A stretch of 34,092 bases of DNA from a virus (taxonomy: Duplodnaviria > Caudoviricetes), in IMG/VR virus record IMGVR_UViG_3300034965_000059, positions 1 through 34,092 of that record; one strand, written 5' to 3'. Position 1 is the first letter of the stretch. Each line of letters begins with the position of its first letter. The notes beneath the pieces are model-generated. The model did not search any database, was not told the DNA's origin, and saw only the letters and a program-made list of their open reading frames with translations. Of the stretch, positions 1,512-31,522 are shown piece after piece. Position numbers and translations under genes: made by a program.

Positions 1512-3527
1512 ATGAAAAAAACTTCAAATAACCTCGAGTATTTTGCAGCCATTCCGCCGGAAGAATCCGATAGGCTCGCCGACGAGATGCGCGAGAAGAT
1601 CCGCATATGGCGGAAGCATTGCGATGCACAAGGGTTCACATCCCTGTGGTCTAGAAAATTAAGAAATTATTATGGTAGCAGCATTAGTGGAAGCTCCTCC
1701 CAAACATTGACACGCGGTGGTTCAGAGGGTGAGCTGACCATGGTCAAAGTAAATGATTTGCACTCACTCATTCAGGAGCAGCTTGTCATTGTCACGTCGC
1801 AAAGACCCGCAGGTGTAGCAAAAGCCATCAATAGCGACACGAAGTCTCTGAAAGCAGCACGCATAGGGACCGCGATCGCCGAATATTATATGTCCCAAGG
1901 AGGATTTGAGGGGAAGTTCGTCAATGGGACAGAGGCAGCACTTTTGTGTGACGAATCTTTCTTTGAAATTTTCTGGGATAAGAGTGCTGGTGATCCCATA
2001 GCTGTCGACCCTGATTCTCAGAAGCCTGTTATGTCGGGTGACGCACTGTTAAGAGTTCACTGCACTTGGAATGTGGCGCGTGATATCGGCGCGACCATTG
2101 AGTCAAATAACTGGTACATCGTGTCGTACAAAATGAACAAATTCGACGCGGCTGCTAGCTACGATCGATTCTATGACCACATCATTTCGATCGGTGATGA
2201 TGACTTGCATCCGCTCCCCATGAATACTATTCCGGAAGGGTCTGACGAAATTTACGTCCACCTTTTAATTCATGACCGTACCCCTTCAGTTCAAAATGGT
2301 CGGTATGCGTTAATGATTGGGGATAAAATCGTAGTAGATTCGGCGCTTCCCTATAAAGACTTTCCTGTAGAAAGAATGGCGCCCAGCGACGTGATTGATG
2401 GCAACATGGGCTATGCCTCAGCAAACGACATTCTTGCTCTAGAAGAAATAACCGACGCATTGCATAGTATTGTCACAACCAACCAGGTTTCGCTAGGCGG
2501 GCAGTGCATAGTCGGACCAGAGGGTGCAAATATTAAGGTGTCTGATCTGGCAAAAGGGGTTCGGTATTTTGAGCTACCACCTGACCTTGTAGACAAGTTG
2601 AAACCCCTTCAATTGGCCAGAACACCACCGGAGATTTTTAATTATATTGGAATGCTGAATGAGAAAAAGGGCAAGGCTGTGGGATCCGTATCCGGCATTC
2701 TAAGTCAACAAGCTGCGCAAGGTGCATCTGGTTCCTCAATGGCACTGATTCAGACTCAGGCCATTTCCTATAATTCAGGAACGCAGCGGAGTTTTTTCAA
2801 AACAATGGGTGGTGTGATGACCAAGCTCATTGGAGTGCTACGCGTCTATGCAGATACTCCCAGAGTTGCTTCCATTGTTGGGAAGACTAAAAGTGCAGGG
2901 CTCAAAGAATTTAAATATACAGGCCACGATCTTGGCAGCATCTCCTCAATTGTTTACGAAATTGTGAATCCTATTTTCCAAACCTATGGCGGTCGTTTGA
3001 CAGCTGCTCAAGACCTCTTAAAAGCCGGTCAAATCAAGAGCCCAAAACAGTACATCAATCTTGTGGCGACAGGACAGGCCGATGTGTTCGATCAGGATGA
3101 CGAGGCCGATGGCTTATTAATACTTGAGGAAAACGAATGGTTAATGGAAGGGAAACCTGTCCGTCCATTGATCACGCAGCAGCATGCCGATCATATTAAA
3201 AGCCACACGAGTCAAATTACTTTAGAGGCACAGGTTGAGGATCCAGATTTTGTTGGACGAGTGTTGGATCATATCCAAGAGCACATCAATCTATGGCAAC
3301 AAGCCTCTGCATCTAATCCAGGCATTCTCATGGCCACAAACCAACAGCCTCTCATGCCTCCACCTCCTCAGATGCCACCGCCTCAAGTCGGCGCACCTGT
3401 CGGAGCACCAGGACTTGGCCCTCCTCCCGTCGCTCAAAAAGCCGCAGGGGTAACAGAGCCTAACTTGCCAAATTTACCAGGGACAACCGAGAAACCCACC
3501 ATTCCAGGGGTGACGGATGTTGTCTAA
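1512..3527 (+). CDS. Portal protein
   Basis: 671 aa directly after terL, with a Pro/Gln-rich tail typical of podovirus-type portals. SD GAGG. Confidence 0.82.
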   Translation: MKKTSNNLEYFAAIPPEESDRLADEMREKIRIWRKHCDAQGFTSLWSRKLRNYYGSSISGSSSQTLTRGGSEGELTMVKVNDLHSLIQEQLVIVTSQRPAGVAKAINSDTKSLKAARIGTAIAEYYMSQGGFEGKFVNGTEAALLCDESFFEIFWDKSAGDPIAVDPDSQKPVMSGDALLRVHCTWNVARDIGATIESNNWYIVSYKMNKFDAAASYDRFYDHIISIGDDDLHPLPMNTIPEGSDEIYVHLLIHDRTPSVQNGRYALMIGDKIVVDSALPYKDFPVERMAPSDVIDGNMGYASANDILALEEITDALHSIVTTNQVSLGGQCIVGPEGANIKVSDLAKGVRYFELPPDLVDKLKPLQLARTPPEIFNYIGMLNEKKGKAVGSVSGILSQQAAQGASGSSMALIQTQAISYNSGTQRSFFKTMGGVMTKLIGVLRVYADTPRVASIVGKTKSAGLKEFKYTGHDLGSISSIVYEIVNPIFQTYGGRLTAAQDLLKAGQIKSPKQYINLVATGQADVFDQDDEADGLLILEENEWLMEGKPVRPLITQQHADHIKSHTSQITLEAQVEDPDFVGRVLDHIQEHINLWQQASASNPGILMATNQQPLMPPPPQMPPPQVGAPVGAPGLGPPPVAQKAAGVTEPNLPNLPGTTEKPTIPGVTDVV

Positions 3528-10203: not shown

Positions 10204-13200
10204 GCCAAAGTCTTACATTATCCTTTTCGGGGATCTTCACTAGCCTCTCAGACTATCAAGGATTGCCTCCTGGAGCCTGCAACATCGCGGACAATGTTGA
10301 GTCACGATATAAAAATGTAGCAGAGCCGAGACGCGGTTTTGAGACACTGCCCAACTCAGCCATGAGTGGCGTTTATTTAAAACGAATTTCAAATTTTCCG
10401 ATTGCTGGAGTCGATCGAGTGGTGGGGCTCACAAGTCAAAATAACCTGGTCTATTATAGTGGGGCTAATCCCTGGCCGGCTATCCCAGGTGATGTGGTCA
10501 CAAATATTTTGCCACCGGATCCCATCAATGGAAAATCCAGGTTCATTTCTGCTGGCCAAAATTTATATGTGACCGCTCAGGACGGAATCAGAAGCTTATC
10601 GTCGGGGCCTGCCTCAACTATGCTTAGGGCAGGGGTGCCAAAGGGCTTGGATTTGAGCGCTGAAACCAACGGCGACTTGGACGGTTTTTTTGGAACAAAC
10701 GTTGTCACGTCAACCACTGGAAAGATTGCATCAGGTGTTGCAACCATTACCAACTTGAATGACACGAGCGGGATTGAGGTCGGGCAATACGTCACAGGCA
10801 TTGAAATCCCGGCTACCAGGGTCATTCAAGACATCACGTACAATTCACAGCTTTTCGGTGTTCTGGGCAACGCTATCTCCATTGCGTATGCCACCGGAGG
10901 GGTGGCTGGCTCGGAAATAGTGACGGTAGTTGGGAACGCAATTACCGTCACTATGCAAACAGGAGTATCTACAGCAACTCAGATTTCCACCAAAATCCTT
11001 GCAAGTCCCGCAGCAGTCGCCTTAGTGGGTCTGGTCATTAGTGGGACAGCAGGCACTGCGCAAACTGCCGTGGGTGCAACGCTCCTAACCGGAGGCTTGG
11101 ACAATTCAATTCCTGAAGGAACTAAAGTTTCATCGGTCGATACTTCCGAATCCATTATTATTCAAACAGGCACGACCACTGCGGGAAGTGCAACCGTTTC
11201 AGCCTTGGCTAGCTCTACAGGTGTTGTTGCCGGAGTCCTAGTCACAGGAGCAGGCATTCCAGACGGTGCGAAAGTAGTTAGCATTTCGGGTGCGGGCCCT
11301 TATTCAATTTCTTTGGATACAGCGGCAATCCAAACGGCGACAGGGGTGAGTTTGACCTTCTCCACTCCTGTCGTCATCAACCTTGATCAGAATGCGGTCT
11401 CAACTCTTACCTCCACTGTAGTGATCTTTTATCGTGGGAGCCAGGTAGCCTACCGCATGGTTTTTGGACGCGTGGAAAATGACATCGATGGTGGATCCGT
11501 GACTCGACTCAGTGCCCCAAGCACTCAGGCGATTGTAACCAATGGAGCCTATCCAACGAATGTAACAGTGATCGGGACCTTGCCCAAGAATGCCTCGAAC
11601 GAGATCACATTCGTTCAACTTTACCGGAGTGCCCAGACTGCGGACGTGGACATAACACCACTCGACCAATACTCCCTCGTGTATGAGAGAAAATTGGTCG
11701 CCAGTGATTTTATATCTCGAAGAGTTACTATTTTAGACGAGGTTCCTGATTCACTAATGGGTATCTCATTGTACACCGGTAGTGACCAAGAGGGTATTTC
11801 TCAGGCAAATTTCCCTCCTCCAATGGCTTGGGATGTTTGCAAATTCCGGGACTTTATTTTATACGGCAATGTGACAAGACCCAGCACGTTAAGCTTCACA
11901 ATTCTTTCGGTGAGTGGAGCTAGTGGAATTCAGATAGGTGACACAATTACAATTTCCGGAAGTTTTTTGGGAGTTGGGTTTTCAGAAGTCTACACGGCGA
12001 GTGCCGCTGAAAATCTCGCCTCAAAACAATTCAAAATTTACACTTCAGGGACAACGAGTCAAAATATCTCAGACACGGCCGACTCTCTGATTCGAGTTAT
12101 TAATTATGATGAGGATCTTCCCATTCACGCTGTTCTTATTTCCACAGAATCGGACCTCCCAGGTCAGATAAATCTAGAGAGTGACAACCCAAGTTATGAC
12201 ATATTCACAATCACGGCGAGTGCTCATGTTGATGCCTATGATCCTAGCCTTGATGATCTTGATTCCGATATTAATACGACTCGAAACGGAATATGCATCA
12301 GCAAATCAGGAGAATTAGAGGCAGTTCCTGCATTGAATATTTTAAATGCCGGTGATTCAAGTTCCGATGTCTTGCGGCTCATTCCACTTCGAGATTATGT
12401 CATTGTTTTAAAGACGGATGGGATTTACAAGATCCAAGGGTTGACGCCATCTGGCTTGGTGGTCAACCCATTTGACCTCACCACAAAAATTATCGGAGCT
12501 GACACGGCCGTGAGTTTGAACTCCGGTGTGTGGATGCTTTCCAATCAAGGTGTTGTGTCTATTTCGGACGGTGGGGTGGACGCCAAGAGCGTTCCTATTG
12601 ATGACCAATTGAATCGACGGATTGGGAGCTACATCGACAACCTCATCAACTGTTCTTTCGCCATAGGGTACGAGAGCGATCGAAAATACATTCTCTCAGT
12701 GCCTGATTCGGACAATGAATATTCTGAGGTTCAATACTGTTTTAATTATGTCACGAGTGCTTGGACAACATGGTCGCGGAACTTTTATAGCGGATTCATT
12801 CACTCGGAGGACGGGAAGCTCTATGTCGGCCGCGCTGACCCTTTGAATTTCGGGCTGTCGAAAGAACGAAAAACGGCAACCTATACCGACTACGTGGATG
12901 AGGCGGCGGCTAATGTGATTTCAGCGGTGGCGGGTACGGTTGTTACCCTGGATGATATCAGCGATGTCATTGCAGGAGATGTGCTCTACCAAAGCGCCAG
13001 TCTTTTCAGTCCGATCATTGCGGTTGATCTAGCGGCAAGCACCGCGACGGTACAGTACGCTGTGGGGTTCACGGCCGGGGCTGTATCGATCCTTAAGGCT
13101 TACGAATGCAACATTGAGTGGAAACAAGTGTTCGGAGACAATCCGGCATTCATGCGCCAATTCAGTGAGGGCATGTTCCTGTTCAAAAACACCCGGTTCA

Positions 13201-13478
13201 ATGCAGCCCGAGCGGGCTTCGTGACGGACTTTTCTCAAGCTTTAGAAAACGTCGATTTAGTAGGGTCTGGGACCGGCTTGTGGGGCCTATTCTCTTGGGG
13301 TGATCTGCCCTGGGGAGGAACCATCATCCCGTCGAAAATTCGGTTCTACATTCCTCAGAACAAACAAATTGCGACGTACTTAATTCCAAGCTTAAAGATT
13401 CAGCAGGGCTTCTCCGACTTCAAAGTGCTCGGCTTATCCATTAGCTACTATCCAATTTCACAGGAGTCCGGACTATGA
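10200..13478 (+). CDS. Tail nozzle / tubular-B-like protein with inserted beta domains
   Basis: N-terminal ADNV...PRRG motif, a propeller-like central region (VIVLKTDGIYKI, VWMLSNQGVVSI) and a C-terminal WG..WG..PWG motif. Confidence 0.68.
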   Translation: MSQSLTLSFSGIFTSLSDYQGLPPGACNIADNVESRYKNVAEPRRGFETLPNSAMSGVYLKRISNFPIAGVDRVVGLTSQNNLVYYSGANPWPAIPGDVVTNILPPDPINGKSRFISAGQNLYVTAQDGIRSLSSGPASTMLRAGVPKGLDLSAETNGDLDGFFGTNVVTSTTGKIASGVATITNLNDTSGIEVGQYVTGIEIPATRVIQDITYNSQLFGVLGNAISIAYATGGVAGSEIVTVVGNAITVTMQTGVSTATQISTKILASPAAVALVGLVISGTAGTAQTAVGATLLTGGLDNSIPEGTKVSSVDTSESIIIQTGTTTAGSATVSALASSTGVVAGVLVTGAGIPDGAKVVSISGAGPYSISLDTAAIQTATGVSLTFSTPVVINLDQNAVSTLTSTVVIFYRGSQVAYRMVFGRVENDIDGGSVTRLSAPSTQAIVTNGAYPTNVTVIGTLPKNASNEITFVQLYRSAQTADVDITPLDQYSLVYERKLVASDFISRRVTILDEVPDSLMGISLYTGSDQEGISQANFPPPMAWDVCKFRDFILYGNVTRPSTLSFTILSVSGASGIQIGDTITISGSFLGVGFSEVYTASAAENLASKQFKIYTSGTTSQNISDTADSLIRVINYDEDLPIHAVLISTESDLPGQINLESDNPSYDIFTITASAHVDAYDPSLDDLDSDINTTRNGICISKSGELEAVPALNILNAGDSSSDVLRLIPLRDYVIVLKTDGIYKIQGLTPSGLVVNPFDLTTKIIGADTAVSLNSGVWMLSNQGVVSISDGGVDAKSVPIDDQLNRRIGSYIDNLINCSFAIGYESDRKYILSVPDSDNEYSEVQYCFNYVTSAWTTWSRNFYSGFIHSEDGKLYVGRADPLNFGLSKERKTATYTDYVDEAAANVISAVAGTVVTLDDISDVIAGDVLYQSASLFSPIIAVDLAASTATVQYAVGFTAGAVSILKAYECNIEWKQVFGDNPAFMRQFSEGMFLFKNTRFNAARAGFVTDFSQALENVDLVGSGTGLWGLFSWGDLPWGGTIIPSKIRFYIPQNKQIATYLIPSLKIQQGFSDFKVLGLSISYYPISQESGL

Positions 13479-13895: not shown

Positions 13896-15311
13896 ATGCC
13901 TTATTTTACAGACTACTTGAAGAAAGAAGATGAAGAAAACCCTTCACAGGTGCAGATCTCCGGAGCAAGCCCCACAACTGATTCCTCGGGTGCTCTTTCA
14001 CAGCAGAAGGGTGACAACAAGGGCTTAGTGACAGGTAGCGGATATCAGAACCTGGACAAGTATCTCACCACGAATCAACCTCAGGCTTTTGGTCAGCAAG
14101 TTTTGGGGAAAGTAGGCTCAGAGGTCGGAGCTGTCCAGCAAAACATTGGAAAAATTGAAGGCGCGAAATCTCAAATCGCGGAACAAAATAAAACTCCAGA
14201 GCAGGCCCAATTGAATGCCGCCATTGCTAACCCAACAGGTGCAAATGCCGAGACATGGCAGGCTTGGCAGAATCAGAAATATCAGGGGCCACAATCCACG
14301 GCCGATGTCGGTGCATATAATCAATTGGGATCCGCGACTCAGAAAGCTCAAACGAGTGCAAAACTTTTAGGAAATGAAGCAGGGCGGTTCACTCTCCTGG
14401 ACAGCTACTTTGGCAGGCCCAATTATAATTTCGGCGAAAAGAGTTTGGATAACTTGATGCTTCAAAATGCCGGTGTCGGGCGACAAGCTCAGGGCCTACA
14501 GAATCAAGTCACAGCACTCAAAACAGAAGGCCAGGAGGTCGGTAAAGGTCTCCAGAACACGATCACAGGAACCCAGGGGCAAGTAGCCGCAAGCCGAGCT
14601 GCAACCAGAGGGGCAATCGGGATAGGCGAAAATGGCGAGGTTTTAACCGGAGACAAGGCCGGAGCTATTGGTCAGCAATGGAGTGCAGTTGATCAGGCAC
14701 TTGCAAGTCAGAATGCGGCAAGACAGGCAGAGAACGCTTCTATTTCAAGTGGTTTATCGAACGGTATTTTGAGCCCTGAACAAATGGCAAAGTTCGGATT
14801 AACTGCCGGTGAGCAGACTTATAATATCAACCCAGGATCTTATTTCACAGCAGGTGCGGATCTTACAAAGAACCAAGTGATGACACCTGAGCAACAAGCA
14901 AGAATCCGTGCCCTAAGTTCTATGGCAGGCATCACTGATACTTATGCTACGGGTGATTTGTCTGCCAAGAGTGATCCTTATAGTTTCAACACAGCTCAAT
15001 TCAAAAATGATGTTGGCGGTGCTAAGTCTGCTTATGAGCGAGAATCCGATGCATTATTTAAACAAGTAGCTGATCAAGATGTACGTGACGATGGAGGCGA
15101 TCCAAACGTTGCAGACGATCCTTATCAATATGCTAACTATTTACGTGGTGTTGTAGGGGGTAATGATTACAACGGATTCGCATCCTCGGATGTTAATACT
15201 CAAAACGCTTTGAAAAAATACAACGCAGCAAAAGCAGCACTAGATTCAAAATATGGTGTTGGAAATAGTATAGGTCCAACAGGTCGAACAATGGGCGGCA
15301 TCAGGAGATAA
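13896..15311 (+). CDS. Putative ejection (internal virion) protein
   Basis: SD AGGAG. Q/A/G/N-rich and predicted helical. Lies in the ejection module position. Confidence 0.58.
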   Translation: MPYFTDYLKKEDEENPSQVQISGASPTTDSSGALSQQKGDNKGLVTGSGYQNLDKYLTTNQPQAFGQQVLGKVGSEVGAVQQNIGKIEGAKSQIAEQNKTPEQAQLNAAIANPTGANAETWQAWQNQKYQGPQSTADVGAYNQLGSATQKAQTSAKLLGNEAGRFTLLDSYFGRPNYNFGEKSLDNLMLQNAGVGRQAQGLQNQVTALKTEGQEVGKGLQNTITGTQGQVAASRAATRGAIGIGENGEVLTGDKAGAIGQQWSAVDQALASQNAARQAENASISSGLSNGILSPEQMAKFGLTAGEQTYNINPGSYFTAGADLTKNQVMTPEQQARIRALSSMAGITDTYATGDLSAKSDPYSFNTAQFKNDVGGAKSAYERESDALFKQVADQDVRDDGGDPNVADDPYQYANYLRGVVGGNDYNGFASSDVNTQNALKKYNAAKAALDSKYGVGNSIGPTGRTMGGIRR

Positions 15312-15312
15312 A

Positions 15313-16377
15313 ATGGATCCATTAACAGCTAGTTTAGCGGTCGGAGCAGTATCTGGTATTGGTAGTTACATTGCTAATCAATCCGCAAATGACAGGGCCA
15401 AGGCACTACAGGACAAGTCATTCCAACAATGGATAGCATTGAATGTCCCAGACCCAGCTGAGCAGAAAGTCGTCTTAGATAAATTTGTCTCGCAAGGAAC
15501 TTTGGATCCGAAGCTTCAATCAGCTATCGCACAAAATCCCAGCGAGTTCGAAAACATCGTAACCAACGCTACTCATAAAACGGCTCAGAATAGAGCGTTG
15601 AGTGAGCTTGAAAATGTAGGATACGAAGGAGGGTTACGACTCCAAGATAAGGCGGCCCTCCAAGAAGCTCAGATGCAGGGGCAACAACAAGACCGTGCAG
15701 CCAGAGATAATATCGGCGCTGAAATGGCACGTCGTGGAACGAGTGACAGCGGTTTCAATGTGGCCGCCCGTCTTCAAGGTCAGCAAGCCTCCGGCGACAG
15801 AAATGCTGTCAACTCGATGAAGGTTGCGGCCGGTGCCCAGGATCGTGCTCTCCAAGCCATTATGGGTGCAGGGACACTTGGAACGCAATACCGAACCCAA
15901 GAATTTGGCGAGCAAGCACAGAAAGCCGGTGCTGCGGATCGAATCGCTCAATTCAACACAGCAAATTTACGTGACGTGAACGCTGCCAATATCGGAGCTC
16001 AGAATCAAGCACAGGCGACTAATCTTTCGAACGCTCAACAGCTTGCAAATCAAAACACGTCGCTCGCTAATCAGCAGCAAATGTACAACAAGGGGCTCGC
16101 TCAACAACAGTTCGAGAATCAGGCGAAAAAGACGGCCGGTATGACAGGTCAGTATGGCCAGCAAGCGGGGCTTGCACAACAACAGGGCCAGCAAACTGCA
16201 AACCTCATTGGGAGCATTGGAGGAGCGGCATCGGGTGCGATTGGACAATATGGATATAACCAAGCAATGGCCAAGAATCAAACTCAGGCAGCTCAGACAC
16301 CACCTACTTATGCTCAATTAGATGACTATTTTGCGACCCAGAAAAAACGTGAACAAGCTGGGATGGGGAGTGCTTAA
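15313..16377 (+). CDS. Putative ejection/DNA pilot protein
   Basis: Hydrophobic Gly/Ala N-terminus (MDPLTASLAVGAVSGIG) and a Q/A/N-rich coiled coil. Confidence 0.65.
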   Translation: MDPLTASLAVGAVSGIGSYIANQSANDRAKALQDKSFQQWIALNVPDPAEQKVVLDKFVSQGTLDPKLQSAIAQNPSEFENIVTNATHKTAQNRALSELENVGYEGGLRLQDKAALQEAQMQGQQQDRAARDNIGAEMARRGTSDSGFNVAARLQGQQASGDRNAVNSMKVAAGAQDRALQAIMGAGTLGTQYRTQEFGEQAQKAGAADRIAQFNTANLRDVNAANIGAQNQAQATNLSNAQQLANQNTSLANQQQMYNKGLAQQQFENQAKKTAGMTGQYGQQAGLAQQQGQQTANLIGSIGGAASGAIGQYGYNQAMAKNQTQAAQTPPTYAQLDDYFATQKKREQAGMGSA

Positions 16378-17571
16378 ATGCGTTCAAATTATTTCAGTCA
16401 AGACAACGACGATTTTTTGAGTGATGAGGAAAGCCCTTACTCCACCATTTCCGACCGCGTCCCTCTTGAGGATGTTTCAGGGCTTTCGGAATCTAGAGAC
16501 CTGCTTGCAAACGGGGGTATATCTGCACCTCCCACCATTTCAAACTATGGGCCAAATCCCGCTGTAAAAGCCGCCATTGCCCAAAGAACACTTGCATCGA
16601 AACCTAGAACCCATCCACCGGAAGTTCCGAGACACGGAGAATATTCAACCGATCCAGAGATGCAGCAATACGAGGTACAGCAAGCAGAGGTCGATAAACA
16701 AAGACATGCGATGCTCGGTGCAAATCAGGCGCTTGCTATGGGACAGATCGGTGCACAGCTAGCGACTGGTGGACAAAGTGAATATAAAGATTCAGGAGCC
16801 TCAGCTCTTACCCAAAAAGCCGGAGCTGAAATGCTTAAGGGTAAAGAGGAGGACATGGATCGGCGGAAAAATATCATGAACGCGATTGAACAACGGAAAT
16901 CTCGAGAAGGTATTCGTTCGGAAAACGCTCAGAACAGAGCTGCTGCAATGCAGATGACTCAAAGCAATAAAATAGGAACCGATCAGGACAAAGCCTATAC
17001 AACGATGAGGCATGATCTTGAGTCCTTCCGAGGAAACCAAGCCGCCCAACAAGCAGCTCTCAAGATTCAAAACGCTGACACTGCTTTAGCAATTGTTAAG
17101 AACAAAGATCCCAACACTTTATCAACTCAAGATTTGAACTTACTCGCGAACGAAATGGGAAAACTAGCCTCTGGTGGCGTTCCTGGAGAGCACGGCGTTC
17201 AAGCGATGATGCCTAATAATCTTCAGACAAAATTAGCTGAAATGCAAAGCTTCATTTCAAGCAAACCGACCGACGCTCAAGCGGGTGAGTATATTAAAAG
17301 GAATATGGCTTACCTTGATGAAATGAAGCAGGTCGCTCAAGGAACTTTGAATTCTTACCGATCTAACATTGCCAAAGGTTATAAGAATCGTGTGAAACCT
17401 GAGGACTATGCCTCGGCCGCTACTGATTATGGATTTGGGGAAGCTACTGCCCATAAAATGACCGCAGGAGCTGAAAGCACTTTTCCAAAACAAGTGAGAA
17501 AAGACGGGCATGTGGCTACGGTGTCAACTCAAGCGGAATTTGATGAAGCCAGAAAAGAGGGCTTTCAATAA
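16378..17571 (+). CDS. Putative ejection protein
   Basis: 397 aa, helical, abutting both neighbours. Confidence 0.55.
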   Translation: MRSNYFSQDNDDFLSDEESPYSTISDRVPLEDVSGLSESRDLLANGGISAPPTISNYGPNPAVKAAIAQRTLASKPRTHPPEVPRHGEYSTDPEMQQYEVQQAEVDKQRHAMLGANQALAMGQIGAQLATGGQSEYKDSGASALTQKAGAEMLKGKEEDMDRRKNIMNAIEQRKSREGIRSENAQNRAAAMQMTQSNKIGTDQDKAYTTMRHDLESFRGNQAAQQAALKIQNADTALAIVKNKDPNTLSTQDLNLLANEMGKLASGGVPGEHGVQAMMPNNLQTKLAEMQSFISSKPTDAQAGEYIKRNMAYLDEMKQVAQGTLNSYRSNIAKGYKNRVKPEDYASAATDYGFGEATAHKMTAGAESTFPKQVRKDGHVATVSTQAEFDEARKEGFQ

Positions 17572-23438: not shown

Positions 23439-23612
23439 ATGAAAACAATTAATCAAAGGCTTGCCGTCGGGATGCTCTTGGCTTTAATGAATCCGAAAGA
23501 TTTTAAGACAAAAGGGAGAGCGATTTTTTCAGATTCTGAATTTAAAGAGATCAATAAATTTTTGAGTAAGAAACCAAGATCTTCTAAATCTAAAGCCAAG
23601 GCGAGCAAATGA
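23439..23612 (+). CDS. Small basic protein (57 aa)
   Basis: SD GGAG. Manual translation MKTINQRLAVGMLLALMNP...KAKASK. ATGA overlap with the recE-like gene. Confidence 0.6.
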   Translation: MKTINQRLAVGMLLALMNPKDFKTKGRAIFSDSEFKEINKFLSKKPRSSKSKAKASK

Positions 23613-24430
23613 GCTTGCCAGCCATCGTTGAAAACTTCGCACCCCACTGGAAGATCCTTTCCAACGCGGACTACCACGCAGACAAAACAGCAGTTAGCTC
23701 CACAGCCCTGAGAAGGGTCCTTAAATCGCCGAACTCCTTCTTGGTGGGCCAACGTGGTCAATCGATGAAAGAAACGCCTGCAATGGCATTTGGGAGCGCA
23801 GTGCATGCGGCCATATTGGAACCCGAGCTATTCAAATCCCATTATGTTATCGCACCAAAGTTCTCAGGTACTGGTAGCGTGAAAGCTAAAGCGGATTGGC
23901 GGTTAGAACTCCCCAAGGATGCTGTGATCATGGATGAGGACGACTACAACGCAGTCCTGGAGATAGTGAACTCAGTTATGAAGCGTAGGGACGTGTGTGG
24001 GATCTTGAAAAGCGGCAAAGCTGAGCTATCGGGCTATTATGCGGACCCAGAGACCGGTATCCTCTGTCGGATCCGCCCTGACTGGCTCAACATGCGTGCA
24101 GGGGTGATGCTGGATGTTAAAACAACTCAGGACATTCAGCTAGAGGAGTTCTCCAAAAGCATTTGGAATTACCGCTACGACTTCCAGTTTGGATTCTACA
24201 AAGAGGGCATCGAGTTAATCACTGGACGTGACGTTGACTCGTTCTTTTTGGCGATTCAAAAGACACCCCCATATGAATGCGCTTTATACCTCGCTGATGA
24301 GCTGCTAATAGAACGCGGAAAGTCTGATTATCACTTAGCCCTAAACAAATTAAAATCGTGTTTGGATAGTGGGGTTTTCGAAGGGTATCAACAAGGGATT
24401 CAGGAGATAGGATTGCCAGCATGGGCGTAA
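23609..24430 (+). CDS. recE: RecE-like PD-(D/E)XK exonuclease (exonuclease VIII / DUF3799)
   Basis: YHAD..VSST, FGSAVHAAILEP, CRIRPDW...DVKTT and YRYDFQFGFY motifs. Upstream of recT. Confidence 0.88.
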   Translation: MSLPAIVENFAPHWKILSNADYHADKTAVSSTALRRVLKSPNSFLVGQRGQSMKETPAMAFGSAVHAAILEPELFKSHYVIAPKFSGTGSVKAKADWRLELPKDAVIMDEDDYNAVLEIVNSVMKRRDVCGILKSGKAELSGYYADPETGILCRIRPDWLNMRAGVMLDVKTTQDIQLEEFSKSIWNYRYDFQFGFYKEGIELITGRDVDSFFLAIQKTPPYECALYLADELLIERGKSDYHLALNKLKSCLDSGVFEGYQQGIQEIGLPAWA

Positions 24431-24696: not shown

Positions 24697-25599
24697 ATGA
24701 GTATCGTAAAAAGTGAATCAAGAAGTTTAACCCCACTCGGAGCCTTGCAACAGAGCTTGAAACAATATTTGCCGGAGTTTCAAAAGCAACTTCCTTCGAA
24801 TGTTGATCCTGAGAAATTTCTTAGAATCGTTTTAAATACCGTAGCGATGAACCCAGCGTTTTTGAAATGCGATAAAGCATCTCTTTTTGCTGCTGCTGCG
24901 AAATGCGCAGGCGATGGGTTGTTTCCAGATGGACGTGAAGCCGCGATGATCCCTTATGGCAATCAATGCCAATATCAAATCATGATTTACGGGGTCTATA
25001 AGAAGGCACGTAACTCAGGAGAGATTGCACTCCTTTGCGCTGAAATCGTATATCCAGGTGACCATTTTAAATTCGGTGTCAGCAGTGAACGAGGAAAATA
25101 CCTTGATCATCAACCCAAGTTTGATTCAGAGAGAGATGTAAAGGACGCCATTGCTGTCTATGCACTTTCCAAAACCAAAGACGGGGAATGTGATTTCGAA
25201 GTGATGACTCGGCAAGAGATTGAACACGTAAGAAATAAGTTTTCCAAAGCTGCAAAGGGTCCTGCTTGGACTGACTCTTGGGGAGAAATGGCCCGTAAGA
25301 CTGTAGTTAAGAAGCTTGCCAAACGTCTCCCAGCCTCTTCAGATGACAAAAACGATCTTCGGAAAATGCTCGACAAAGAAGACGAAAATTACGACGCGTC
25401 TCTTTCTGTTCCTAAGAGTAAAGCCGAGGAATTTACTGAAAAGTTCAGTAATATGTCTTCAGTTTCTGACGCTGAAATCGTTGGTGAGCAAGTGAATGAA
25501 GTCGAACTCGAAGACGTCAAACACGAGCCAGGATCTTTCGGCGCGTTCCAGGGTACGACTATTGAGTCGAACAATGGAAAAGTGATTAGTCCGAATTAA
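24697..25599 (+). CDS. recT: RecT single-strand annealing protein
   Basis: GLFPDGREAAMIPY, EIVYPGDHF and WTDSWGEMARKTVVKKLAKRLP motifs. Confidence 0.95.
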   Translation: MSIVKSESRSLTPLGALQQSLKQYLPEFQKQLPSNVDPEKFLRIVLNTVAMNPAFLKCDKASLFAAAAKCAGDGLFPDGREAAMIPYGNQCQYQIMIYGVYKKARNSGEIALLCAEIVYPGDHFKFGVSSERGKYLDHQPKFDSERDVKDAIAVYALSKTKDGECDFEVMTRQEIEHVRNKFSKAAKGPAWTDSWGEMARKTVVKKLAKRLPASSDDKNDLRKMLDKEDENYDASLSVPKSKAEEFTEKFSNMSSVSDAEIVGEQVNEVELEDVKHEPGSFGAFQGTTIESNNGKVISPN

Positions 25600-25600
25600 A

Positions 25601-25807
25601 ATGAAGTGTCAAAATTGCGGATCCGTTTATCATTCACGCCGTAAAACCTCGTGGGTTCAGCCCGAGGATATAAAGCGTTTGCACGTAGTGCAATATCCCT
25701 GTACTTCCACTCCCAGAGCCTATATACAGCCAATTCGTTCTTTGAAATTCAGATATACGGTTCGAGCGCGTAAAATCATCTTGCGCTCGGTAAAATCTGT
25801 AAAGTAA
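25601..25807 (+). CDS. Hypothetical basic protein
   Basis: Starts 1 nt after the recT stop. N-terminal CxxC. Confidence 0.4.
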   Translation: MKCQNCGSVYHSRRKTSWVQPEDIKRLHVVQYPCTSTPRAYIQPIRSLKFRYTVRARKIILRSVKSVK

Positions 25808-25827
25808 ATTACGAAACCTTTGAGACG

Positions 25828-25855
25828 TTGAAAGTCTAATCTGTTTGAGTATATT
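25828..25855 (+). promoter_or_regulatory. Putative promoter for the reRNA-like element
   Basis: TTGAAA, 16-bp spacer, TATATT. Confidence 0.4.
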
Positions 25856-25861
25856 TTCCAT

Positions 25862-26065
25862 TAGGAAGCTCAAACGTAAAAGAAAAGACTGGAGTCCAAA
25901 ATTAAGCCTGTCTCTCGGAGACTCTGGCGAAGGGCAGTGGGTCATGACCATAGCTCTGTAACTCCTGGAAGATTGTTCAGGAGCGATTCGGTTGTGAATC
26001 GCCCTCACGGGGAATCCCCTTCGTTTACGGAGGGGAGGACATCAAGGATCATGTGACTTTTAATT
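25862..26065 (+). ncRNA. IS200/IS605 TnpB-type reRNA (omega RNA) scaffold plus putative guide, with no tnpB
   Basis: GAAT, hairpin (TCCCCTTCG-TTTA-CGGAGGGGA), GGACA, TCAA matches an IS605 right end. The upstream AATTAAGCCTGT pairs with ACGGG, and GTCC can pair with GGAC as a pseudoknot. Confidence 0.68.
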
Positions 26066-26316: not shown

Positions 26317-26637
26317 TTACTTCCTCCAGTCCGTGTCATCCCAGGCTCCCTTGCCCATATTACAATCAACGCAGAGGATCTGTAGGTTGGTTTCATCTAG
26401 AGCTCGGTAAGGGTAGCGGTAACGCGGCTTGATATGGTCTACATGGATCTCAATTCCTTCTCCTTCAGCTCCGCAGGCCTCGCATTTGCGACCGCGTTTC
26501 AGCAGTACCTTGTACCTCAGAGTCCTCCACCGTTTGGATGAATAGAAGTCCGATCTTTTAGGCTGTGGCTTCACTCTGAGGATCCAAGCACCAGCTGATG
26601 TGGTAATCAAGATTAGGAGAAGTTGGTAAAGGTCCAT
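26317..26637 (-). CDS. HNH endonuclease (possible N-terminal TM segment)
   Basis: FYSSKRWRTLRY, CEACG, HVDHIKP and NLQILCVDCN motifs. Start uncertain (ATG 26637 or GTG 26574). Confidence 0.88.
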   Translation of the reverse strand: MDLYQLLLILITTSAGAWILRVKPQPKRSDFYSSKRWRTLRYKVLLKRGRKCEACGAEGEGIEIHVDHIKPRYRYPYRALDETNLQILCVDCNMGKGAWDDTDWRK

Positions 26638-26830
26638 GACAAAAAAAAACATACCCGAAAAAGAGCTGGAAAACGGACATTCTGATCAATGCTTTAAGCC
26701 GCAGTGCATTAGCGTCAGATGTGACAGCGAGTTTTTAAAGGGCTTCATGGTGGGTATCAAAACCCAGCTCGAGAAAATTACCGAGAGGATTGAGGAGCTT
26801 GAGAAGGGTTGGGATAGGGATGAAGGTTAA
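26636..26830 (+). CDS. Hypothetical protein
   Basis: 64 aa with H/C motif and a coiled-coil end. Confidence 0.5.
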   Translation: MTKKNIPEKELENGHSDQCFKPQCISVRCDSEFLKGFMVGIKTQLEKITERIEELEKGWDRDEG

Positions 26831-28059: not shown

Positions 28060-28416
28060 ATGAAAAAGAACACTTGTAGGCGTGGTCATGAATATACAGA
28101 AGAAAATCTGATAACCCGAGTCCGAAATCTAGATGGAAGAATAGAGAGAATCTGCAAGGCATGTGAGGCTCTTAGAGGAAAAAAGAAGCATGATATTCGT
28201 TTAAAAAAAGCAGGCAAGAAACGAGGAGAATGGGCATCACAATTAATGGACTCAAGAAGAGAATATCTTGAATGGAGACAACAAAACGACATGCCATTGC
28301 TTTGCAACAACAATCATTCCTTAACAGTGGGGACCATTCAAATACATGGGTCCGTTATTTATTGTGCAATTTGTAAAAATGAAGCGATTGTAAATAAAAG
28401 AGCCAGGATGCCTTGA
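28060..28416 (+). CDS. Protein with two C-x3-H...CxxC Zn-binding modules
   Basis: CRRGHEYTEEN...RICKAC and CNNNH...YCAIC, a module seen on phage HNH proteins. Confidence 0.65.
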   Translation: MKKNTCRRGHEYTEENLITRVRNLDGRIERICKACEALRGKKKHDIRLKKAGKKRGEWASQLMDSRREYLEWRQQNDMPLLCNNNHSLTVGTIQIHGSVIYCAICKNEAIVNKRARMP

Positions 28417-29269: not shown

Positions 29270-29818
29270 ATGTCAGATATGACATCCAAAAAACTGAATG
29301 TGAGAATGAAAAGTGGAGAAGTAGAGATTCATTTTGAAAATGGTGATGTCGCTATGATCGATAGGGAAGATTTAGAACTTTTTGCTTCAATGCGTTGGTA
29401 TACAATCCAGGGCTATGGGCAAACTAAATATTTAAAAGCTAACATTATCAAAGAAAATGGAACTGATTCGACGATTGAATTTCATAGAATGATTATGAAA
29501 TCATCTATAGAAGGATTCGAAATTGATCATATTAATAGAAATGGTCTAGATAATAGAAAAGTAAATCTTAGATTAGTAACCCATCAAGAAAACCAAACTA
29601 ATAGGGCGAAAAATAGAAATTCTACGAGTAAATATTACGGTGTCTCATATGATAAGGAAAAAAAATCATGGGTTGCCCAAGCTCAGTGTAAGACAAATAA
29701 ATGCGGCAGAAAAACGTTGGGGTATTTTAAATCAGAAGAGGACGCAGCCAGATATAGAGAACAAAAGATACAAATGGAACCAAATATATATTCAGGTCAT
29801 AGGAATGGCACAGTATGA
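29270..29818 (+). CDS. HNH endonuclease with AP2 domain
   Basis: FHRMI, IDHINRNGLDNRKVNLR...EN..N, SKYYGVSY...W.AQ and LGYFKSEEDAA motifs. True start may be ATG 29279. Confidence 0.92.
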   Translation: MSDMTSKKLNVRMKSGEVEIHFENGDVAMIDREDLELFASMRWYTIQGYGQTKYLKANIIKENGTDSTIEFHRMIMKSSIEGFEIDHINRNGLDNRKVNLRLVTHQENQTNRAKNRNSTSKYYGVSYDKEKKSWVAQAQCKTNKCGRKTLGYFKSEEDAARYREQKIQMEPNIYSGHRNGTV

Positions 29819-31035: not shown

Positions 31036-31522
31036 AAAGGTCTACAGATACCAACACACAGTCATTGAAAAGAAGTGTATCGAATGTTCAAAAATATTTA
31101 AAGCGATCAGAAGACTTAAGTCTATTTGCTCAGAAGAATGTAAAAGTAAGCGAAGGAAAATGTTCAGACCTCCAACGTTTAGGGAGTGTGAGCAATGCGG
31201 GCTATCCTTTGGGCCATTGGATCATCTCAAGCAAAGGTTCTGTAAATATGAGTGTAAGGTCAAAGCTCAAACTACCGGTCGCACGTGCACTAGAAAAACA
31301 ATTACAAAAGCTCGATCAGCTCAAAGTCTCCTTAGATATCACATTCAGGCCGGCAATATTGTTAGACCAGAAATATGTGAAAAATGTGGCATCAAAGGTA
31401 AAATTGAAGGAGCACATAGGGATTACGAAAGACCGCTTGATGTTCGGTGGCTTTGTCGCTCTTGTCACATACGATGGGATAAATCAAAACCAAAAGGCGT
31501 TACCTATCGAGTCGAACTGTAA
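30983..31522 (+). CDS. Zn-finger protein with C-terminal HNH-like domain
   Basis: Two CxxC...CxxEC modules, then CEKCG...AHRDYERPLDVRWLCRSCH. Confidence 0.8.
   Translation: MEMGRRPRGQKLRPWANEKVYRYQHTVIEKKCIECSKIFKAIRRLKSICSEECKSKRRKMFRPPTFRECEQCGLSFGPLDHLKQRFCKYECKVKAQTTGRTCTRKTITKARSAQSLLRYHIQAGNIVRPEICEKCGIKGKIEGAHRDYERPLDVRWLCRSCHIRWDKSKPKGVTYRVEL

Follow-up and report, generated by a model that had tools for sequence, protein, structure and literature searches.

A gene-less IS605-family element with a conserved structured RNA in a phage genome

The phage record analysed here, a complete genome of 34,092 bases with direct terminal repeats whose whole length we call the window, carries at positions 25631-26045 a 415-bp, ORF-less element of the IS605 family (a PATE, short for palindrome-associated transposable element), both ends of which are intact. 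Judged by comparison with homologous copies, the interior of the element corresponds to a structured RNA, some 310 nt long, that has been conserved. Our preferred reading, which we put at a probability of about 0.63, is that of a non-autonomous selfish element whose conserved RNA would serve as omega RNA for a TnpB of the RIIr-5 type in trans, with homing as the outcome. The class as such is already published: PATEs have been defined (PMC3119063), their omega RNAs are described as acted on in trans (10.1101/2023.03.14.532601, PMC10691335) and stand-alone omega RNAs are stated to function in trans (PMC10691335). What appears to be new is the 5' extension of about 245 nt, which is non-coding and built of modules; one of these is common to a different omega-RNA family. 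Our literature search returned no description of the RNA family of the window or of phage TnpB decoys; omega-RNA models or alignments that accompany PMC10691335 and the Meers preprint may include the family.

In passages of PMC10691335 the role of gene-less IS605 elements with omega RNA is called unknown, and the mechanism of RIIr-5-type TnpB unstudied. The family of the window provides a handle on that role: its RNA has been kept and carries an extended fold without coding overlap, so that selection on the RNA alone becomes readable and testable. For RIIr-5-type TnpB the family furthermore delimits a compact core, about 62 nt in length, whose pseudoknot covaries, and it reveals a 5' module of 70 nt common to two distinct omega-RNA families.

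Ends, target site and setting of the element

The features in and around the element are, in window order:

23609-24430, + strand: exonuclease VIII-like gene, context upstream of the element
24697-25599, + strand: recT, context upstream of the element
25601-25630, + strand: start portion of a short Cys-rich frame, opening 1 base past the recT stop
25627-25630, + strand: TTAT tetramer of the target (TTTAT if read from 25626), which marks the insertion site, is the predicted TAM and does not belong to the element
25631-25676, + strand: IS605-type left end with AAAA DNA guide (25643-46) and subterminal hairpin (25647-67)
25634-25951, - strand: 105-codon antisense frame spanning the element, probably a shadow frame
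25700-25728, + strand: weak sigma70-like box (7 of 12) just before the structured RNA, with a predicted RNA start near 25735
25737-25808, + strand: 5' module, a long irregular hairpin, also in copy a of a second phage record (G001) and in two G001 copies of a different omega-RNA family
25824-25896, + strand: domain 1, a long interrupted hairpin (helices 1-4; compensatory changes at 8 pairs across three copies)
25906-25983, + strand: three stem-loops (25906-28, 25931-57, 25962-83; helices 5-8; 8 pairs with compensatory change), recognisable also in a distant relative (L184)
25984-26012, + strand: compact omega core, with hairpin 25984-26001, whose loop 25991-95 pairs to the tail, and small stem 26002-12
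26012-26045, + strand: right end with GAAT DNA guide, hairpin 26015-36, pseudoknot strand 26039-43 and TCAA cleavage motif
26046-26065, + strand: flanking phage DNA outside the element, the predicted guide by its position and by analogy with ISDra2 (as given in part of PMC8612924); the flanks vary among copies

The preliminary description of this DNA had proposed an orphan TnpB-type guide RNA, and the motifs on which it built all lie where it placed them: GAAT at 26012-15, the 9-bp hairpin at 26015-36, TCAA at 26042-45, CCTGT, ACGGG, GTCC and a TTGAAA-16-TATATT stretch (25828-55). It rightly recognised an IS605 right end that bears the scaffold of a TnpB omega RNA, and this right end is identical at 36/38 positions to the end downstream of an intact tnpB in a viral locus (L004). 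It was correct, too, in seeing neither tnpA nor tnpB, none of which turned up in the whole phage record with searches whose controls were positive in 6 and 9 of 14 genomes, but it missed a convincing left end: behind TTAT (25627-30) there follow 12 nt, the AAAA guide and the subterminal hairpin, which in the window carries a bulge. Left end, TTAT target and GAAT-hairpin-TCAA right end therefore make the 415-bp gene-less IS605 element the unit, and what had been proposed as the guide is phage DNA lying to its right. Both ends present subterminal hairpins with DNA guides, a conserved target motif stands 5' of the left end, and there is no target duplication; the pairing of AAAA with TTAT and of GAAT with TCAA fits the IS608 guide-pairing rule. 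The last base of the element is A, and the base following it is G, C and G in three copies.

A blind blastn search of 72,556 plasmids matched the left-end stretch on three Acinetobacter plasmids, and the two examined (L002 and L003) have the same left-end layout, with GAAT-hairpin-TCAA closing gene-less elements some 330-350 nt on. Scanning of genome contigs yielded 25 loci, seven of which combine a left end, a tnpB-like frame and a right end of the window's type, a tally that is circular for the target because the query contained TTAT; with a query free of TTAT, and hence of this circularity, TTAT was found 12-15 nt ahead of the AAAA guide in 15/15 similar left ends. The shuffle control for the left-end pattern (0 in 300) carries little weight, since the pattern had been drawn from the window. 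Two pattern scans of viral contigs gave no exact left-end pattern (0 and 0), annotated phages contained no DNA match to the element and one weak match to the 5' module, and matches on plasmids were confined to the ends, none arising in protein mode. Gene-less elements sharing the left end of the window lie on the Acinetobacter plasmids at L002 2495-2820 and L003 2495-2847, and in Crenothrix at L022 2505-2810; L003 retains DNA coding for the tnpB C-terminus, and L002 is a more decayed, hairpin-rich form. One viral contig (L113) harbours two 105-base minimal elements, made up of left end, compact omega core and right end, at 2001-2105 and 2702-2806 (-), 700 bases apart. The flanks of the window element (25620-25630 and 26046-26050) form a 5-base inverted repeat centred on TTAT, and the empty site could thus form a small hairpin.

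The element occurs as a single copy in its phage genome, 3' of the exonuclease VIII-like gene and recT. The Cys-rich frame at 25601, a putative gene, would close after 15 codons if the element were removed. The suggestion that the RecE/RecT neighbourhood is meaningful finds no echo elsewhere: among the loci of RecT relatives (33-45% identity) the right-end pattern is missing from 80/80, and the G001 copies lie in other surroundings. The phage has no close relative, its best RecT matches being 52-59% identical, and no empty site was found.

Several known kinds of element invite comparison. PATEs resemble the window element in their subterminal hairpins at both ends, a short left target motif, the absence of target duplication and of an ORF, and the presumed use of their omega RNA in trans; in contrast to them, the window element resides on a phage, and its interior is a covarying modular RNA of 310 nt rather than a recognisable tnpB coding stub. 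IStrons likewise place IS605 ends around a large structured RNA together with an omega RNA, and ORF-less forms are reported (in part of 10.1101/2023.11.20.567912). Identity with an IStron was rejected on the lack of any group I intron match and on the terminal base, which is A and not G. Domesticated guides of the TldR type adjoin a gene for nuclease-dead TnpB and have lost the transposon ends, whereas here the ends are present and no TnpB-type gene is adjacent. The omega RNA of IscB (HEARO) runs inward from the element end; this identity was discarded as well, there being no Rfam HEARO match and the G-U changes indicating the + strand.

Fold of the RNA and its omega core

The segment 25735-26065 folds much better than its shuffles (z -5.2, 0/100). 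Three copies are available, the window and two homologous copies in G001 (a and b, with scaffold identities to the window of 80.5% and 79.5%), and these are 72-81% identical to one another. Across them 218/221 cells are paired and 22/74 pairs have changed on both sides in a compensatory manner, a level of pairing and covariation reached by 0/500 shuffles in a test that rests on these three sequences, from which the structure was also derived; slid structures pair just 39-51%. One-sided changes yield G-U on the + strand. In the window RNA no helix is broken, and its own changes are compensated, two pseudoknot pairs included.

Against this fold, several particulars of the preliminary description do not hold. 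The CCTGT/ACGGG helix makes 5, 3 and 4 of its 5 pairs in the three copies, and competing local helices covary; the TTGAAA-16-TATATT stretch, taken for a promoter, falls within domain 1, with a -10 box that neither of the two other copies retains; and the start of the conserved RNA precedes the proposed one, at 25828, by about 90 nt. A GTCC/GGAY helix is possible, with 4/4 pairs in all three copies, but it hardly varies. A comparison with RNA covariance models had been suggested as a check, and in Rfam the window has no match at threshold; with HgcC (RF00062) the last 45 nt align well and the rest does not, giving 18-25 bits against a threshold of 50 (E 0.13 at 18 bits). HgcC is linked to IS605 ends. 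Group I intron, tRNA and tmRNA were considered as identities for the RNA and dropped, no match to any of them being obtained. Loci from the scaffold-pattern scans (L030, L225, L229-L231) were set aside as chance matches; one other scan match is G001 copy a.

At the 3' end, the supported pseudoknot pairs loop 25991-95 with tail 26039-43, in place of the GACGUU-tail helix predicted by RNAalifold (model R1). The GG-loop hairpin is present in 27 of 83 distinct right ends, and in these the loop-tail pairing is 5/5 in 24, 4/5 in two (the window and G001 b) and absent in one. Seven loop/tail sequence variants occur; the window has a double change of its own as well as a U-U where 24 others pair, and the same U-U is seen in G001 b. 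In intact elements the compact core overlaps the last tnpB codons, and all tnpB genes that end in a window-type core (10/10) encode Gly where RuvC-II has its Glu, followed further downstream by a V[ND]E motif, which part of PMC10691335 gives as the mark of TnpB clade RIIr-5. A pseudoknot to the last bases ahead of the guide is described as a conserved omega-RNA feature (in passages of PMC10097598). On these sequence grounds, the pseudoknot likely ties the 3' core to RIIr-5-type TnpB, and the RNA is likely an omega RNA for TnpB supplied in trans. The scaffold terminates at the right end, and the flank behind it, the predicted guide, differs among copies.

The omega RNA (reRNA) of ISDra2, as portrayed in parts of PMC8612924 and PMC10097598, similarly ends at the right end, takes its guide from the flank and has a pseudoknot to the last pre-guide bases, and its scaffold of 231 nt is of a similar order of length to that of the window. 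The two differ in the pseudoknot partner, which in the window, as a hairpin loop, precedes the end by about 50 nt and in ISDra2 lies at about 103 nt, and in the 5' part, which is non-coding and structured in the window but overlaps tnpB and is dispensable in ISDra2. Closer still are IS605/IS1341 elements with RIIr-5-type TnpB (treated in part of PMC10691335; L011, L013, L111, L149, L160, L237), which share the left end (some 80% identity across 60 nt), the TTAT target, the right end, the 3' core and the pseudoknot; in them, unlike in the window, the TnpB zinc finger is encoded upstream of the core.

The fold could also have been selected as single-stranded DNA, for aiding TnpA in bringing the ends together or for protecting the circle. 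IS605 elements move as a single top strand (according to passages of 10.1101/2023.03.14.532601), which is the very strand that folds here, but the loop-tail pseudoknot is an omega-RNA feature that overlaps the TCAA that TnpA must read, and a promoter-like box stands ahead of the fold in five elements; we consider this origin of the fold very improbable. Nor does the antisense frame at 25634-25951 make a persuasive case for a real small protein with the top-strand RNA as its regulator or cargo. The frame is open for about 70 codons from a shared Met in most of 19 database entries, and 17/36 differences from G001 a fall on third positions; yet the changed codons are non-synonymous in 23 cases against 6 synonymous, the frame is broken in G001 b, it shifts or ends early in at least 4/19 entries, two different frames are found at its end, the 19 entries were found precisely because the frame had been called, no family matches, and the predicted pTM is 0.25. 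A coding role is, on this balance, highly unlikely.

Related copies and the 5' extension

Scanning viral contigs for right ends returned 108 loci. Enough upstream DNA is present for 57 distinct right ends, 43 of them behind tnpB and 14 without it (six of the 14 with a left end within 300 nt), and gene-less ends on phages are therefore common. A single locus (L216) matches the whole interior of the window element, and it belongs to G001, a 38-kb phage record (L227, L228) that contains no tnpA or tnpB and five gene-less IS605 elements of two omega-RNA families: two copies of the window's family and three of a second one (family B), located at 15198-15589 (-) and 31069-31375 (-) and ending at 10656, 24247 and 28251 (+). 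Copies a and b each have their own ends and TTAT, and their flanks are unrelated. The family-B element at 23913-24247 (L228 4913-5247) sits behind TTGAT and splits a conserved small phage gene, the halves of which are contiguous in two other phages; family-B elements are therefore true insertions. Just left of the element ending at 10656, at about 10381-10400 of G001 (L227), there is a TTGAT and, directly after it, a stretch that agrees perfectly over 13 bases (14 of 16) with the guide of that element. It provides the split gene with a new start and would constitute a self-target in cis.

Further members of the family are more distant. L184, in record G006, is a shorter fourth member, scoring 75 bits where any other of the 100 loci searched reaches at most 45, and an open RIIr-5-type tnpB lies 4.7 kb from it. 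In G006, the open RIIr-5-like tnpB at 12150-13349 (L237) and a gene-less relative at 17015-17279 (L236) share one viral contig, a natural pair for testing action in trans. The antisense frame, employed as a protein probe, retrieved 19 called entries besides that of the window, one being G001 copy a; by eye, 14/19 run into left-end-like sequence at about the distance seen in the window, which leaves no room for tnpB. These gene-caller products indicate, at the protein level, some 18 further copies of about 400 bp.

Upstream of the core, where intact elements have coding DNA, the family of the window has the three stem-loops, domain 1 and the 70-nt 5' module. The module also fronts two family-B elements and was met nowhere else in the 231 loci searched. 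The starts of the RNAs are nested, that of L184 at the stem-loops, that of G001 b at domain 1, and those of the window and G001 a at the module, and each start sits behind a sigma70-like box that comes after the left end. Out of 12, the box at this position scores 7 in G001 copy a, 9 in G001 copy b, 8 in one copy of family B and 11 in L184.

Whether the extension descends from tnpB coding DNA was addressed by several comparisons. In the window, the DNA upstream of the core gave no profile score for the tnpB zinc finger, against 105 bits for the control L003, and alignment at the DNA level yielded z values of 0.4, 0.4 and 2.0, so that this origin was not adopted; a protein-level tnpB-like signal appears in G001 a alone (0/200 shuffles reach it) and not in the window (120/200). 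Such descent is thus suggested at most by a hint in one of three copies. No tnpB-bearing parent element with the extended scaffold was found in the loci and genomes searched, which comprised a sample of 151 genomes from the class of G005 (0/151 at E 1e-12, a search run without a positive control), the Silvanigrella prophage record (0) and four genomes that gave left-end matches only.

Proposed mechanism and alternative readings

The mechanism we propose is modelled, for its TnpA and TnpB steps, on ISDra2 and ISGst as set out in portions of PMC8612924 and 10.1101/2023.03.14.532601. TnpA from another element would excise and insert 25631-26045, by analogy with ISGst and ISDra2, and a promoter behind the left end would give rise to an RNA of about 330 nt, which a TnpB of the host or of a co-resident element would then load. 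With the right flank as guide, the target would be TTTAT plus flank, a combination that exists only at the empty site, be it after excision or in a sister phage. A cut at the empty site would be repaired from a filled copy, restoring or spreading the element (homing). With the element residing in a phage, sister phages without the insert would be cut as well, the nearest approach to the 'competitor target' of the preliminary description. Finally, and here we are guessing at the least supported step, the non-coding 5' domains may replace the lost tnpB message and stabilise the RNA until loading.

The preliminary description had itself named a decaying IS scar or a non-autonomous element as an outcome that would speak against its reading. 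The latter is what we find, but the scaffold is well conserved, and the element is therefore not simply a decaying scar. The window copy may nevertheless be impaired, because of the U-U in its pseudoknot, the bulged left-end hairpin and the weak promoter box (7 of 12). These same traits, together with the single genomic copy and the lack of tnpA and tnpB on board, would suit a silent passenger, that is, the same element with an RNA that works elsewhere in the family but is here not expressed or has no matching TnpB. Against this, the changes peculiar to the window are compensated, even at two pseudoknot pairs, no helix is broken, and the U-U recurs in G001 b, and we regard a silent copy as rather improbable.

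Use of the RNA in trans, as the preliminary description had it, is plausible; its stand-alone phage guide or decoy is not supported. According to that proposal, the phage keeps the RNA as a weapon, steering a TnpB or TldR of the host to a gene of that host or of a competitor, or as a decoy that titrates TnpB. The scaffold is indeed under selection with no nuclease in cis, G001 holds five gene-less elements, recT adjoins the element, and the cutting of empty-site sister phages is a by-product that could benefit the carrier. However, both transposon ends and TTAT are retained, the guide is merely flank, copies lie at unrelated sites, one of them splitting a conserved gene, and right ends are missing near recT in all 80 loci. 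The guide, moreover, has no TAM-flanked match in its own genome and, as a 20-mer, no exact match in the metagenome collection. A phage-weapon role of the RNA is accordingly unsupported, and we deem it quite improbable.

Beyond the preferred reading of a selfish element with a trans-acting omega RNA, a bolder idea may be entertained, albeit as a speculation that is on balance unlikely: a long-lived gene-less IS605 lineage would have built new RNA domains after the loss of tnpB and become a parasite of TnpB transposons, its stacked, exchangeable 5' modules letting its RNA out-compete the cis omega RNA for TnpB or carrying an activity of their own, and the result would be an RNA-only homing drive against sister phages.

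As to the phage itself, the window terminase (15-1502) has one match among annotated phages, in a Silvanigrella prophage at 26% identity, which is the sole host lead and too weak to name a host. The region of the element also contains three HNH-type frames, at 26317-26652 (-), 28060-28416 and 29270-29818, one of which opposes the main direction of transcription.
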